A stretch of DNA of 64,000 nucleotides from an uncultured delta proteobacterium (GTDB lineage Bacteria; Desulfobacterota; Binatia; UBA9968), in assembly GCA_963804165.1 (NCBI GenBank), contig CAWDPO010000036.1, forward strand, positions 32,001-96,000. The letters are read 5' to 3'. The translations under genes and the position numbers were made by a program. The notes beneath the pieces are model-generated. The model worked only from the letters and a program-made list of their open reading frames with translations, was not told the DNA's origin and searched no databases. Shown piece by piece: positions 2,397 to 8,949 of the stretch (positions are counted from its first letter, which is position 1; every line of letters begins with the position of its first letter).

Positions 2397-3398
2397 TTAT
2401 CGGACCAATCCAAGATCCTTACGCACCCGGTCGAGAAAGCTAAAGTCGACCACTTGCTCCACGCTGACCGGCCGCGCAACTTTTGCGTTGGTGCGCATGA
2501 GTTCGATCAAATACTGGACTTCCTCGTTCGTCACCCGCGCTTCCTTCGTGACGACGCGCAGCGAATAGCCGAGCATTTGCTCGGCCAGCTTGCTGTCGCT
2601 GACTTTGTGCTGCTTCATGATGATCTGCACGACCTCGTCGCGGTTCTTGGGCTCGGACAGGAACAGCAAGCCGCGCAGCGATGCGCGCACCATGCGATAG
2701 ATCTCATCCGGGTTTTCGCGAATTTTGCGTTCGGTGGCGCCGAACCCGTTTTGTGGAAATTGCGCGATGTCGCCCATGAACGTCAGCTCGTTGTATCCCT
2801 TCGCCTTGGCGAAAATCACCGCCGGCACCGGGAGCACCGTCGCATCCACCACGCCGCTCTCCATGGCGGCAAAACGACTCGAAGTCGAACCTCCCATGGG
2901 AAGCACTCCAGCATCCTTTTCCGGATCAAGACCGTAGTGCCGCAGGACTTCCTTCGCGAGAATCGTCGCCGTGCCACCCGGCGAACTGCCCGCGATCTTC
3001 TTTCCTTTGAGATCGCGCGGATCTTTAATCTCCTTGCGGCTGACTAAAAAGAGCAGCGGCTTGCCGACAGTGACAATTAAGAGTTTCATCGGGCTGCCCT
3101 GAACAGCGGCGCCGACTACGCCGGTGACTGCGCCATTAATTTCGATCTGGCCGGTCAAGGCCGCCGAGTTGACGACGTTGGTCGGCATCAGGACGATCTC
3201 AAGATCGATACCTTCGTCTTTGTAATAGCCTTTGTGATACGCAACTTGGAGCGGCAGGTAACCCACGTGCGTTTCGGATACGCCGATGCGGACTTTTTTC
3301 GGGTTGGTTTGGGCCTCGGCTGAAGGAGAGCCGGTAACGAGGGCCGCAATGATCGTGAGAGAGAAGACCACGGCTTTTAAGTCGACGCGAAATTTCAT
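2397..3398 (-). CDS. ABC substrate-binding protein, SsuA/NMT1/THI5 family
   Basis: Signal peptide, KGYYKDEGIDLE, DLKGKKIAGSSPGG, C-terminal VDFSFL. Confidence 0.85.
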   Translation of the reverse strand: MKFRVDLKAVVFSLTIIAALVTGSPSAEAQTNPKKVRIGVSETHVGYLPLQVAYHKGYYKDEGIDLEIVLMPTNVVNSAALTGQIEINGAVTGVVGAAVQGSPMKLLIVTVGKPLLFLVSRKEIKDPRDLKGKKIAGSSPGGTATILAKEVLRHYGLDPEKDAGVLPMGGSTSSRFAAMESGVVDATVLPVPAVIFAKAKGYNELTFMGDIAQFPQNGFGATERKIRENPDEIYRMVRASLRGLLFLSEPKNRDEVVQIIMKQHKVSDSKLAEQMLGYSLRVVTKEARVTNEEVQYLIELMRTNAKVARPVSVEQVVDFSFLDRVRKDLGLVR

Positions 3399-4644: not shown

Positions 4645-5820
4645 CTACCTCGCGTGGTGACCGTACAGATAGTGCTGCCGTAAGAGATCCTTTCCGTAGT
4701 CGTTGCCGTTGGGCGTGCGCACGATGACATGGATATGATCTTTGTACGGCTTGGTCTTTTCGCGGAAAGCGATGCCGCGCTGGTGGTCGAACTCGACGAT
4801 GATCACAGGGCTTTGGACCCGGTAGTAGAACGTACTGTCGTCCGCCATGCCGCCCATCCAGCAAAAATAAGTGTTCTTGAGATGCTGCTTCACTTCTTCC
4901 ATCTTCAGTTGGGCATGCCCGCTGCGCATGCGCGCGACGTGGTATGCGACGAGATCGAGCAGGAGGTCGTGTTGCTGGCTGGACAATTCACCGTAGCGGA
5001 TACCGCTGTAGTCGAGCACCAGGTTGTCGCGGAAAGCCGTGGTAAAATCCTGGCCCGCGGTCTCCGGAGCGATGACCGTCTTGGCGCGCTGCGCGTCCGA
5101 AAGGGTGCGCGCCAAGGCGCGGCCACGATCTTCGTCGTCTTTGAAAATTTTCAAGCCGGCGTACTTTCCCGTTGTGGCGTGCACAGGTTCCGCGCCGAGA
5201 AATGTCGGCGTGACGACGACCTGATCGCCGAGCACGAAATAATTGATGATCAGATGGTGGCCATCCCATTGCCAGCCCCACGGTGCCGTCGCCGAAGGAT
5301 TGCCCATGATACTCAGCCAGTAGAGGTCCTCGCCGTATTCACTAAGCCTGCCGGTCATTTCCAGCACCGTCTCGTTCAGGTGCATGATATTGAGGGCTTC
5401 TTCGAAACCGTCCCGGCTCAAGCTCTCACGCAGCAGCGCGAAAGCATGGTCGCGTTGAATGTCATTCATCTCGAACAGCGGCGTGCCATGGCGCATGAGA
5501 GTCGGATGAATGTTACTCCACTTGCGCCATTGGTCGGTATCAATAGGAAAAAGTGTTTTGGCGCGCTGCTCAGAATTCAGCGATCCCAGGAATGCCTCTG
5601 CAGCTTCTCGAATCGTCTGCGTCGAAGCGCCGGTTTTTTGAATCCCGTACAAACCGGGAATGACCATGCCGTCGCTGGTGATGCCCTTGAAAGGCTCGGC
5701 CGCAGCCACGAGAGATTTCTCCACATAGTCTGGTCCTCCGCCTTTGGTGTGGAGCGGTCGATTGGGACCGCGCTCGGTGCACGTTTCGGACAAGCCGCGT
5801 GTGCGTGGATCGCTGCTCAT
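4645..5820 (-). CDS. DUF3500 family protein
   Basis: WGWQWDGHHL, FYYRVQSP, HIHVIVRTPNGNDYG motifs. Confidence 0.85.
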   Translation of the reverse strand: MSSDPRTRGLSETCTERGPNRPLHTKGGGPDYVEKSLVAAAEPFKGITSDGMVIPGLYGIQKTGASTQTIREAAEAFLGSLNSEQRAKTLFPIDTDQWRKWSNIHPTLMRHGTPLFEMNDIQRDHAFALLRESLSRDGFEEALNIMHLNETVLEMTGRLSEYGEDLYWLSIMGNPSATAPWGWQWDGHHLIINYFVLGDQVVVTPTFLGAEPVHATTGKYAGLKIFKDDEDRGRALARTLSDAQRAKTVIAPETAGQDFTTAFRDNLVLDYSGIRYGELSSQQHDLLLDLVAYHVARMRSGHAQLKMEEVKQHLKNTYFCWMGGMADDSTFYYRVQSPVIIVEFDHQRGIAFREKTKPYKDHIHVIVRTPNGNDYGKDLLRQHYLYGHHAR

Positions 5821-5901
5821 AGCTTTGATTCTCCTCGTGCCTTTTCGGTGCGTATCCGGAGTTCTTCTTAGTGCCGGAGCGGAACGGAAGTCAAGAATAG
5901 A

Positions 5902-6111
5902 TTAGCGGGCGGGGCCGGTTGACTCGTACTCTTCGAGCGCGCCGGGAGCCGGGCAGAAAGGCAAACAGTCGCCGCAGCCGGTGCATTCCTGCTCCAGCAC
6001 TTCGTACATGTGATGGATGTCCTGCATCTTCGGGTGGACAGCGTGCTCGGGGCAGACTTCGCGGCAGAGGCCGCAGGCGATGCAGAGGCTTTCGACGATT
6101 CTGACTTTCAT
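5902..6111 (-). CDS. 2[4Fe-4S] ferredoxin
   Basis: Two CxxCxxCxxxCP motifs (CIACGLCREVCP, CTGCGDCLPFCP). Confidence 0.9.
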   Translation of the reverse strand: MKVRIVESLCIACGLCREVCPEHAVHPKMQDIHHMYEVLEQECTGCGDCLPFCPAPGALEEYESTGPAR

Positions 6112-6314
6112 GGTTGGTTGAGTGGAGAGTTCATGCCTCGATAAGGTTAGCACGAACGGAAAAAATCATTCGCAAAATAATCCGTTCACGCCGAGCTTGT
6201 CGAAGCGTTCTTCCTATTTCGATCCGCCTCTGCCTGAGCAGTTGATCGGCTAGTGACTTGCCGTGAATTTCCGCAGTTTGAATCATCAATCGTTTAATTC
6301 TGTGATTTCACTCC

Positions 6315-6404
6315 GAGACTGTGTCGCAATGTCATCCTGAGGCGACAGCCGAAGGATCTCGCTTTCGCAAGTCGCTGCAAAGACGAGATGCTTCGCATTG
6401 CTCA
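6315..6404. repeat. Left part of composite REP/MITE-like repeat, interrupted by the IS1111-type element
   Basis: GAGACTGTGTCGCAA + TGTCATCCTGAG..CGAAGGATCTCG..CGAGATGCTTCGCATTGCTCA; continues at 7721. Confidence 0.85.
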
Positions 6405-6609
6405 TCTATGAAAGCTTTGTCAAGGTGGCTGATATTCACATATCGATATTCCGTCAAAGGTTTTGAACAAACTTACTCATATCGTCCGTAGTCCTGCGCA
6501 CCCGATGTTATCGGACTCATCTATTCGCCGTCTAAAGCGGCAGAGGAAAATGCCACAGGGCTGTCGCAATCAGCATTCGAGCCTTGTTTGGCTCATGAGC
6601 GAAACGCGC
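6405..6609 (-). ncRNA. Putative bridge RNA/seekRNA in the 3' non-coding end of the IS
   Basis: Guide-hairpin-guide layout UUUCGCUCA-[GAGCC..GGCUC]-AUGCUGA matching the target flanks; second hairpin followed by AUAGAUGA matching the donor end; exact RNA ends unknown. Confidence 0.7.
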
Positions 6610-7650
6610 TTAGCCCCGCGTGGACGACATCGGTTCCCGATAGGACTCTCCCTTCTTAAGCATCCAGAAAGCCGCCTCGGCCAAGTGTCGGGCGACCGCC
6701 ACAATCGCTTTGCCATGACCGCGCCTGGCTTTGACGTTTTCATACAGCCGGCTGATATGTCGGTACTGGCAGCGCTCGCGGTTGAGCACCGCGCTGTTGG
6801 CCGCCTCGACGAAGGCCCACTTGAGATACAGGTTCACATCTTTGCGCACCCGCCCGTAGCGGATCTTGCCGCCACTGGAGTTCTCTCGCGGTACCAGTCC
6901 CGCATAGCTCGCCAACTGTTCGGCTCGGCCAAAGCGTTCGATGGTGCCGATCTCAGTCCAAATCACCACCGCCAGCATTTCACCGACCCCCGGCTCACTC
7001 TTCAAGTAGGTCGTCTGGGGGCAGGGAGCAAACGCTGCTTGCATCTTTGCTTCGATGACCTTGAGATTGGCTTGTACATGATCGAGTTCGTCAAGCATCA
7101 ACTTCAGCGCTTCGCCGGTATGAGGGGGCAGTTTAGCCAGCAGTCCTTCGAGGATCTGTCGTCCCTGCTTGCCAAAGGCGTCGCTGATTCCGTCCACCTT
7201 AAAGCCGTACTTACTTATAGTGGCGTGAATCCGATTCTTGAGTTGGGTGCGTTGATTGCTCAACACCATGCGGGTGCGCGGCAACTCCCGAGCGTCGCGC
7301 ACCGCGGACGGGGGAATCCAGACCGTCGGCAGGGTTCCTGCCCTCTGCAAACGGTTCATTCCTTTGGCATCCAACTTATCGCTCTTGTTGACGCTGCCGA
7401 TCATCAGCTTGGCCAAGCGTGCATTGACCAGTTGCGGACTCCCTTTTCCAGCTTCGATCTCATCGACTACCCAGTACCAGTTCCCAACCGTCTCCACCGC
7501 CACGGGAGTTCCGGGATTCCACTTCTTGGTAAAGTTCTCGATGGTTCCACCAACGTGCGCGAGTTTGCACTCATAGAGCTTATCGCCCTTGTCGTTTTCC
7601 ACTCGCGCCCAGCTGTAGTGCTTGTGAACATCCAATGCAATGTATTCCAT
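6610..7650 (-). CDS. IS110-family DEDD recombinase/transposase
   Basis: IALDVHK, VAVE, KSDKLDA (RuvC-like DEDD domain); C-terminal YAGLVPRENSSGG; GGAGG RBS. Confidence 0.95.
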   Translation of the reverse strand: MEYIALDVHKHYSWARVENDKGDKLYECKLAHVGGTIENFTKKWNPGTPVAVETVGNWYWVVDEIEAGKGSPQLVNARLAKLMIGSVNKSDKLDAKGMNRLQRAGTLPTVWIPPSAVRDARELPRTRMVLSNQRTQLKNRIHATISKYGFKVDGISDAFGKQGRQILEGLLAKLPPHTGEALKLMLDELDHVQANLKVIEAKMQAAFAPCPQTTYLKSEPGVGEMLAVVIWTEIGTIERFGRAEQLASYAGLVPRENSSGGKIRYGRVRKDVNLYLKWAFVEAANSAVLNRERCQYRHISRLYENVKARRGHGKAIVAVARHLAEAAFWMLKKGESYREPMSSTRG

Positions 7651-7720
7651 TTGCGATTTCCTCCTTCACCCGCCAGTCTAGTCACTGACGCTGTGGATTC
7701 CATCGCTTTCATATTAATCA

Positions 7721-7757
7721 GCATGACACTAATGGTCGCTCGTTGGTTGCGGCACAG
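7721..7757. repeat. Right part of the interrupted composite repeat
   Basis: GCATGACA completes the CTCAGCATGACA arm; TTGCGGCACAG pairs with CTGTGTCGCAA at 6319-6329. Confidence 0.85.
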
Positions 7758-7830
7758 AAGGGGAGAAGGTCGGAGCAATCCGTACGATCAAATTCTCGCA
7801 CTGTGGCCAACCTTTGCCTTTCCTCGTCAC

Positions 7831-8949
7831 TCAGCTCGCCGCCAAAAGTCGCTCGTGGCCCTTCTTCGAAATCGGCGCGAGTTGGGATGTGACCAACGAC
7901 CAGTTTTCGCCGTTATCCTCGCTGCAGTATACCTCGCCGCCGGTGGTGCCGCCGAAAATGGAGCAGTTACCGTTCGATTCTTCAAGACAGAGCGCGCCGA
8001 ACTCATGTTTCAAACTCTCCGGCAATCCGCCGCCAAGCCGTTGCCAGTTTTTTCCGCCATCTTTGCTGCGGTAGATTTTCCCTTCCGCGCGCGCCGCCAG
8101 ACCGGCCTTTCGCCACGTCGTCGGGTTGTGCTCCGCGGCGGCGACGAACATGAGATCGGGATTTTTCGGATTCCACGTGAACCCGTCGGGATAAACGTCC
8201 GCCGCCCAATCCGGGCTCATCCAGCGTTCCCAACTGCCGCCACCGGTATTGGTGACGTACAGTCCTGCGCCGCCCGTGACATAGATTCTTTGCGGATCGC
8301 GAGGATCGATCAAACAGCGGTGCACATCGTAGAAATGTTCGACGGGACGATTTTTATCCGTGAGCAACCCAACCGTATTCAACTCCGTCCAACTCTCTCC
8401 CTCATCGGTGCTTTTCAAAAACGCACCTTGCTCGATGCAAGCATAGATGGTTTTCGAATCTTTGGGATCGAAGGTGATGAATTTCGTGTGTGCCACGTGC
8501 GGCGCCGCTGGAAAAGTCCATTGGGAAACCGTCGGCACGGAGCGGAGCGACGGGATTTCATTCCAATGCAGCCCCAAGTCTTCACTGACGAATAAGTGGG
8601 CCGGCTGGGTGCCGGCGTACACGCGGACTTTGCCGTTGACGACGTTGGACGCCAAGCTGTAAACGTCGTGGATCGGGATGCCGTTGTCGCGGCGTTCCCA
8701 AGTTTTGCCGCCGTCGGTGCTCGCGTGAACAGAGCCGAAAAATGCGCCGGCGAACATGGTGCCGCTCGTGCGCTCGAAGATGATTGCGCTGATATGCTGG
8801 CCGCGCAGCGCGCGCTGGGCTTCACGCCACCTGCCGTTAGTTTCACGCTCGAAGAGCGCCAACCCGTCTTGGGTTCCGACCCAGAGTTGCTGCGACCGTT
8901 CGCTTGACGAGTAAACGTTTGTGCCGCCATGAGAAAGTCCGACCGCCAT
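7831..8949 (-). CDS. BNR/Asp-box repeat beta-propeller protein
   Basis: STDGGKTW, SEDLGLHW, STDEGESW, SKDGGKNW, SEDNGENW; GGAGGT RBS. Confidence 0.85.
   Translation of the reverse strand: MAVGLSHGGTNVYSSSERSQQLWVGTQDGLALFERETNGRWREAQRALRGQHISAIIFERTSGTMFAGAFFGSVHASTDGGKTWERRDNGIPIHDVYSLASNVVNGKVRVYAGTQPAHLFVSEDLGLHWNEIPSLRSVPTVSQWTFPAAPHVAHTKFITFDPKDSKTIYACIEQGAFLKSTDEGESWTELNTVGLLTDKNRPVEHFYDVHRCLIDPRDPQRIYVTGGAGLYVTNTGGGSWERWMSPDWAADVYPDGFTWNPKNPDLMFVAAAEHNPTTWRKAGLAARAEGKIYRSKDGGKNWQRLGGGLPESLKHEFGALCLEESNGNCSIFGGTTGGEVYCSEDNGENWSLVTSQLAPISKKGHERLLAAS

Follow-up and report, generated by a model that had tools for sequence, protein, structure and literature searches.

The locus described here raises the question of whether the short non-coding stretch behind a transposase gene specifies an RNA that directs the encoded recombinase to a particular family of genomic repeats, and, if it does, which bases of that RNA read the target and which read the ends of the element itself. 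The window, a stretch of 64,000 nucleotides from a contig of an uncultured delta proteobacterium (assembly GCA_963804165.1, contig CAWDPO010000036.1), contains at 7718-6403 on the minus strand what is very probably an intact insertion sequence of the IS1111 group specifying a guide RNA of the kind called seekRNA or bridge RNA. RNA-guided recombinases of the IS1111/IS110 type, REP-targeting ones included, were published in 2024, and the comparisons made below draw on passages of the published reports. An earlier reading of the same DNA, made from the letters alone (the sequence-only reading), had inferred a natural RNA-guided recombinase whose guide RNA reads a REP-like palindrome. Both parts of this inference are supported by the covariation of the RNA structure and by that between guides and insertion-site flanks.

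The element measures 1316 bp when counted with one copy of its core, and its borders are set by the alignment of its copies together with an uninterrupted target site on contig C25 of the same genome. The sequence common to the aligned copies begins after ..GTCAT(G/T)CTG and stops at ..CATAGATG. The parts of the element and of its immediate flanks are as follows:

7721 to 7727, minus strand: left target half GTCATGC, the outer end of a REP-like arm, identical in all four type-A copies and part of the empty site at C25:+3523.
7719 to 7720, minus strand: core dinucleotide TG, left junction copy.
7651 to 7718, minus strand: left end, 68 nt, with the -10-like hexamer TAATAT at 7716-7711 and the subterminal inverted repeat TATGAAAGC at 7713-7705.
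6610 to 7650, minus strand: transposase gene, 346 aa, with DEDD/RuvC-like and Transposase_20 domains (open reading frame, PF01548, PF02371, NF033542).
6403 to 6423, minus strand: right end, with the -35 hexamer TTGACA at 6423-6418, the subterminal repeat GCTTTCATA at 6415-6407 and the core copy TG at 6404-6403.
6314 to 6402, minus strand: right target half and remainder of the REP-like palindrome, a repeat with about 30 further matches in its own genome.

The encoded protein matches the Pfam domains PF01548 (DEDD_Tnp_IS110; 2.1e-10, residues 5-148) and PF02371 (Transposase_20; 3.4e-21, residues 215-291), scores 232.5 bits against a cut-off of 140 with the NCBIfam model NF033542, "IS110 family RNA-guided transposase", and is terminated by a TAA codon at 6612-6610 (-). 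Its C-terminal motif GLVPRENSSG fits the GL-P----S(t)G pattern that defines the IS1111 group in its C-terminal domain (PMC11187229), and its length lies within the 330-350 aa range of the group. The subterminal inverted repeats are 9 bp long, those of the group being described as 7-17 bp (PMC11208160; PMC11187229). The non-coding ends, 68 nt upstream of the transposase gene and 207 nt downstream of it, fit the IS1111 pattern with its longer non-coding region downstream of tnp, as given in passages of PMC11187229 and PMC11208160. The domain matches, the NCBIfam assignment and the subterminal repeats bear out the earlier classification of the enzyme as an IS1111-type recombinase. A tblastn search of the transposase against plasmids recovered distant relatives only, at 33.4% identity or less. 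A 710-aa open reading frame at window 6463-8595 (+), antisense to the transposase and a neighbouring gene, comes from a mechanical listing and is unsupported as a gene.

The genome to which the window belongs (7.5 Mb, 46 contigs) contains ten full copies of the element and one fragment. The full copies comprise type A, with four copies that are 97.5-100% identical and include the window copy, and type B, an 82%-identical sister whose six copies lie at about 80-83% identity to the window element; the window copy and two other type-A copies have intact reading frames. Insertion is site- and orientation-specific, without target duplication beyond the shared core, as all ten copies lie in one orientation at GTCATNC-TG^ in the arm of a REP-like palindrome, which in the case of the window copy reads GTCATGC-TG^AGC. 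A search with the arm pattern recovers 143 such arms in this genome, and the variable base N of GTCATNCTGA is matched by its complement N' in GAAGN'AT in 139 of these arms (61 T/A, 61 C/G and 17 G/C arms). This complementarity identifies the target as a REP-like palindrome with three subfamilies, and, together with the location of the ten copies, upholds the earlier view that the target is a genome-wide repeat family. No IS resident in this genome carries a guide that would match the C/G subfamily (61 arms). The 9-mer ATGCTGAGC occurs 99 times in the genome, only about 17 of these occurrences being in REP arms, yet all four type-A insertions are in REP arms; ATTCTGAGC likewise has 81 occurrences genome-wide, and type-B insertions are in REP arms in six of six cases. 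The match of nine guide bases is therefore insufficient to explain the choice of site, and something beyond it, possibly DNA structure, helps in the selection of REPs.

An uninterrupted version of the target, reading GTCATGCTGAGCAATGCG, is present in the same genome at C25:+3523, so that the target reconstructed in the sequence-only reading does exist as a continuous sequence. Its flanks are those of an occupied site on contig C20, and the occupied site exceeds the empty one by 1317 bp, the C20 copy carrying one extra G. The two contigs are colinear at 97-98.6% identity over C20:84375-89976 and C25:2631-6926, the difference between them being a type-A and a type-B insertion that C25 lacks. This pair points to a bin, with a stated contamination of 5.03%, in which strains are mixed or a duplication has recently occurred. 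Individual copies show various departures from the consensus: the type-A copy at C17:396007-396143 has a 1-nt insertion inside the donor match ATAGATG, the extra G of the type-A copy at C20:86365-86501 lies just before the transposase stop, inside helix P1, and the type-B copy at C30:69026-70354 (L010) has two broken P2 pairs, changes in P3 and P4, an atypical right flank and the appearance of a copy in decay. Contig pieces from four sequencing runs are short, breaking at the element ends and in the REP; they show neither a joint across the empty site nor one between the two element ends, and are uninformative on circles and expression.

The trinucleotide TGA is common to both junctions of the window copy, and a core containing TCA (its plus-strand equivalent) had been proposed from the window alone. 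The ambiguity of the third base is confined to the window copy: relatives carry G, C or T after TG in their targets, which rules out a 3-nt core and reduces it to the dinucleotide TG on the element strand (CA on the plus strand). A pair of sister elements, L040 and L045, leads to the same result, given that a switch from TG to CG has occurred together in the guide, the donor-side match, the right end and the left flank. Another relative (L058:2521-2655) combines a guide and right end that have the core CG with a left junction TG, a mismatch at the first core base that would follow from a difference between donor and target cores at the time of insertion.

The structure of the putative RNA was derived from 49 non-identical 3' ends, drawn from the same genome and, outside it, from 80 related loci. 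RNAalifold, given this alignment, predicts unaided the helices P1, P1b, P2 and P3, with compensatory changes in 14 of 20 pairs. A covariance model built from the alignment (R1) was run on 71 sources, namely the window, two further loci of its genome and 68 of the 80 related loci (12 were omitted as duplicates or as cut or masked), and matched 70 of them. Across the 71 matches 90.0% of cells are paired (27.9-40.1% in slid controls), the covariation score reaches 0.474, the controls giving 0.084 or less, and double changes are seen in 18 of 23 pairs; as these matches are fitted to R1 the figures lean towards the structure, and the unfitted RNAalifold result from the 49 sequences agrees with them. 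The RNA and its parts in the window copy, in 5' to 3' order, are:

6492 to 6627, minus strand: seekRNA/bridge-RNA-like element, 136 nt, matched by the covariance model at 121.2 bits.
6612 to 6623, minus strand: 5' strand of helix P1, comprising the final transposase codons plus the initial base of the stop, and pairing with 6562-6553 (double changes in 8/8 pairs, helices 1-2).
6596 to 6604, minus strand: 5' side of the target loop, the T guide TTTCGCTCA, complementary to the top strand of the core and right target half.
6578 to 6595, minus strand: hairpin P2 (GAGCC/GGCTC), capping the target loop (96.1% paired, double changes in 4/4 pairs, helix 4).
6571 to 6577, minus strand: 3' side of the target loop, the B guide AATGCTG, in the same sense as the left target half and core, and hence reading the bottom strand.
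6542 to 6552, minus strand: 5' side of the donor loop, CATTTTCCTCT, the expected place of the right-donor guide, with a poor match to the left end in this clade.
6527 to 6541, minus strand: hairpin P3 (GCCG/CGGC; 97.1% paired, double changes in 3/4 pairs, helix 5).
6515 to 6526, minus strand: 3' side of the donor loop, GAATAGATGAGT, in which ATAGATG equals the last five right-end bases and the core, and the following AG the first two right-flank bases.
6502 to 6514, minus strand: hairpin P4, weakly supported (62.7% paired, helix 6).

The helix P1b, a CGCG/TGCG pairing adjoining the stop codon, is invariant, as is ATTGCGAC at 6570-6563 (-), before the 3' strand of P1, and in P2 types A and B are set apart by two compensatory changes. 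Because P1 takes in the stop and the codons just before it, the RNA begins within the transposase gene, about 15 nt from its end. Conservation of the RNA stops near 6492-6502, and the remainder of the non-coding end (6491-6405) consists of a poorly conserved spacer, the -35 hexamer and the right subterminal repeat. The sequence-only reading, in which the RNA spanned 6405-6609, was thus correct in placing it in the 3' non-coding end and mistaken in starting it after the stop codon; the two hairpins it had picked out, GAGCC/GGCUC and GCCG/CGGC, are real and conserved. A fold of the single sequence, which it had suggested as a check, is no better than those of shuffled sequences (z 0.48 for the 208 nt of 6405-6612; -0.71 for the 123 nt of 6490-6612), and a scan of window 5800-8000 against Rfam 15 gave no match at E <= 1. 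In its own genome R1 recovers exactly the ten IS copies, with no solo RNA genes outside them. One related locus has two model matches in opposite directions about 430 nt apart (L081:2530-2666 (+) and 3092-3248 (-)), with element ends abutting, and these elements may be nested or tail-to-tail.

The target loop sits between P1b and P2, and its guides follow one another in the order reported in passages of PMC11187229 for the IS1111 seekRNAs, which lie 3' of tnp, place the match to the top strand 5' of that to the bottom strand, and co-purify with the transposase. The motifs singled out earlier do occur on the minus strand, TTTCGCTCA at 6604-6596, ATGCTGA at 6576-6570 and ATAGATGA at 6524-6517. 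Taken alone, such guide motifs are weak evidence: the window contains ATGCTGA 12 times where 7.5 +/- 2.9 occurrences would be expected, and ATAGATGA three times where 0.97 would be, which corresponds to about 0.024 and 0.003 expected matches per 205-nt stretch. The finding rises above chance by virtue of the covariation between guides and flanks, both within the genome and among 32 relatives. Within the genome the four type-A copies, with ATGCTG, all occupy GTCATGCTG sites, and the six type-B copies, with ATTCTG, all occupy GTCATTCTG sites (exact test, p = 1/210). The T guide of type B matches the core and right flank over 8, 8, 7, 6 and 5 nt without a break in the five sites that can be read, with an 8-nt match in the empty paralogue of the sixth, and that of type A pairs over 5 contiguous nt including the core in three of four sites; the 6/9 match of TTTCGCTCA to its flank noted previously is correct.

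The same relationship extends to other genomes. Among relatives from Nitrospirota, one (L033) combines an ATCCTG guide with a GTCATCCTG site, and four others (L034, L035, L093 and L107) combine an ATTCTG guide with GTCATTCTG sites. For a systematic comparison, element ends were placed by a motif-anchored search for subterminal repeats, which succeeded in 54 of 71 rows and failed in 17; ends defined by the longest inverted repeat had given spurious pairs in many loci and were abandoned in favour of this search. Twelve of the 54 were dropped for unclear ends, and the 42 usable rows yielded 32 non-redundant elements. The mean longest common substring was then compared between own and permuted pairings, a statistic that ignores the relatedness of the elements:

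B guide against left flank: own 4.09, permuted 2.37, 0/5000 permutations at or above the observed value.
Reverse complement of T guide against right flank: own 4.62, permuted 2.81, 0/5000 at or above observed.
3' donor side against right end: own 4.66, permuted 3.22, 0/5000 at or above observed.
5' donor side against left end: own 3.09, permuted 2.55, 0/5000 at or above observed.

Own pairings exceed permuted ones for all four guides, and the covariation between guides and sites that had been put forward as a further check is therefore present; the left-donor guide is clear and the right-donor guide weak overall. Certain Rokubacteria-type relatives (L046:2274-2408, L049:2536-2670, L039 and L044) have sites resembling the T-arm of tRNA (GGTTCGAATCCCGT-TG), and between L046 and L049 the left guide is common, with the right guide differing together with the right flank.

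The second loop is less symmetrical. Its 3' side reads the right end and core through ATAGATG, as had been recognised in the suggestion that a second unit (the hairpin followed by ATAGATGA) matches the end of the element, and it changes along with the right end in relatives (e.g. GATATG, GAGACG and GAGGTG). Its 5' side in the window clade (..TTCCTCT) is without a complement of the core and matches the left end at 5/9 positions in a hand alignment, whereas that of distant relatives (..ATCAT) matches 6-7 contiguous nt, running from the last base of the right end through the core into the beginning of the left end. A right-donor guide was sought in 6552-6542 and 6491-6420 of the window, with no convincing match. 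The earlier remarks that a convincing second donor guide could not be found, and that the donor loop might be asymmetric, are both fair for the window clade.

Could the matches arise without any acting RNA? If the transposase were to read the REP arm and the subterminal repeats directly, as in a protein-guided IS, the guide matches would be by-products such as remnants of former targets. Each match is indeed short (5-8 nt), a 7-mer such as ATGCTGA is not rare in the window, the exclusivity for REPs exceeds what a 9-nt pairing would provide, and among the sequencing runs listed as containing the stretch none is recorded as RNA (20 DNA runs share at most 0.44 of its words). Nevertheless, the compensatory changes in four helices point to selection on the fold of an RNA, the guides occupy fixed places in the fold and vary together with the flanks across 32 relatives whose targets are unrelated, and close homologues need the RNA (PMC11187229), which together make purely protein-based guidance highly improbable. 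The least probable of the readings considered is that the 3' structure serves mainly in cis on the mRNA, as a stabiliser, terminator or means of translational coupling, with the guide matches being secondary. The pairing of the last codons and stop with a downstream strand in P1, and the invariant helix next to the stop, would suit such a role, but no terminator-like site was found in 6300-7800, and a stabiliser needs no loops that track both the insertion site and the element's own end.

A different objection accepts that the family is RNA-guided and holds that this particular lineage is immobile, having lost its right-donor guide, so that the copies are relics. The 5' side of the donor loop is degenerate throughout the clade, and two copies have lesions, namely the insertion in ATAGATG on C17 and the G added before the stop on C20. 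Set against this are the near-identity of the type-A copies, three of which have intact frames, the presence/absence polymorphism between the closely similar C20 and C25 contigs, and the fact that the clade has kept retargeting across the G, T and C variants. We accordingly consider immobility very unlikely, and return to the reading of the element as an intact, RNA-specifying member of the IS1111 group.

From the computationally established structure, guide/flank covariation, insertion point and empty sites, a probable mode of action can be outlined, in which transcription, binding by the transposase, circle formation and the order of strand exchange are modelled on published relatives. The 3' non-coding end and the last ~15 nt of the transposase gene would specify the RNA; the 5' side of its target loop would pair with the top strand of the core and right target half, and the 3' side with the bottom strand of the left target half and core, so that the two guides would jointly place the element at GTCATGC-TG^AGC in one subfamily of REP-like palindromes. 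The 3' side of the second, multi-branch loop would read the right end of the element and its core. No sigma-70-like sites were found in the integrated element. The hexamer TTGACA is found 15 nt ahead of the end of the right-end core, and TAATAT begins 2 nt inside the left end; given these positions, excision as a circle would create a TTGACA-17 nt-TAATAT promoter by joining the right-end -35 hexamer to the left-end -10 hexamer. Such a junction promoter on a circle is described for IS1111 relatives in passages of PMC11187229. In the present element it would drive transcription of the transposase and then of the RNA, and at the TG core the complex of RNA and transposase would bring about recombination between the junction of the circle and a REP arm that matches.

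A further feature concerns the bases beyond the core. On the 3' donor side, the core is followed by two bases that agree with the first two of the right target flank at 43 of 64 positions (24.9 +/- 3.4 in permuted pairings, with 0/5000 reaching the observed value); both match the right flank in 16 of the 32 elements, and both match the left end in none. In the target loop, the B guide likewise runs on into bases identical with the first ones of the left end. Both readers of the bottom strand thus continue into partner DNA, and both match the junctions of the integrated element. This would fit the requirement, given in passages of PMC11187229, that IS1111 donors be flanked by the right target. 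We tentatively propose that in the window clade the two bottom-strand guides run past the core into partner DNA, each reading a recombinant junction, a reading that as a whole is possible and on balance doubtful. In IS621 the handshake is borne by the top-strand readers, so that the arrangement proposed here would mirror it, and would suggest that the strands are exchanged in the reverse order. The REP-targeting clade may have given up the right-donor guide altogether, in which case the left end would be read by the protein through the subterminal repeat. If true, junction reading would let one RNA recognise the integrated element for excision. No description of junction-matching bottom-strand guides was found in the literature searched, which consisted mostly of passages.

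Of the characterized systems, ISPa11 of the IS1111 group from Pseudomonas aeruginosa resembles the window element in targeting a REP in one orientation (PMC11187229; PMC13604230), and has a seekRNA 3' of tnp in which the top-strand match precedes the bottom-strand match and which co-purifies with the transposase (PMC11187229). Its host phylum, REP family, target and core are unrelated to those described here, a distinction drawn from the published description of ISPa11. A natural redirection in which the target-matching bases were replaced and the stems kept is described for ISEc11 and ISXne4 in passages of PMC11187229, and is paralleled by type A, type B and L033; in the window clade, however, retargeting by a single base (G/T/C) splits one REP family, and two of the variants reside in one genome. 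IS621, of the IS110 group, shares the two loops that each read both strands around a 2-nt core, the REP target, a DEDD recombinase whose C-terminal domain bears a serine, and extra "handshake" positions that read partner DNA (passages of PMC11208160 and PMC11208158). It differs, according to the same passages, in having its RNA 5' of the gene in the left end, with the opposite order of guides, in having a simple internal donor loop in place of the multi-branch one, and in bearing its handshake bases on the top-strand readers, whereas the partner-matching bases of the window element follow the bottom-strand readers. ISPpu10 and ISPpu9 of Pseudomonas putida also insert into REPs. Circles of ISPpu10 form a strong junction promoter (PMC12288879), and Durrant et al. 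include it in their drawing of IS1111-type RNAs (PMC11208160, Extended Data Fig. 10); ISPpu9 has a separable small-RNA module with solo copies, for which R1 finds no counterpart here.

The element is a clear natural example of a well-studied kind, and no new principle or mechanism is involved. NF033542 already names the protein an "RNA-guided transposase", and models of the window clade may already stand in Supplementary Table 5 of Durrant et al. or in the supplementary figures of Siddiquee et al. Its value lies in providing a clean natural dataset, in which sister elements of one soil-type genome, one guide base apart, are found in the matching subfamilies of a palindrome, with a third guide variant carried by a relative in another phylum. 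The 71 related RNAs give a well-supported fold on which all four guide positions are mapped, a set that could seed an Rfam-style model of the IS1111 RNAs and serve as a starting point for asking how RNAs of this type read donors and integrated junctions.
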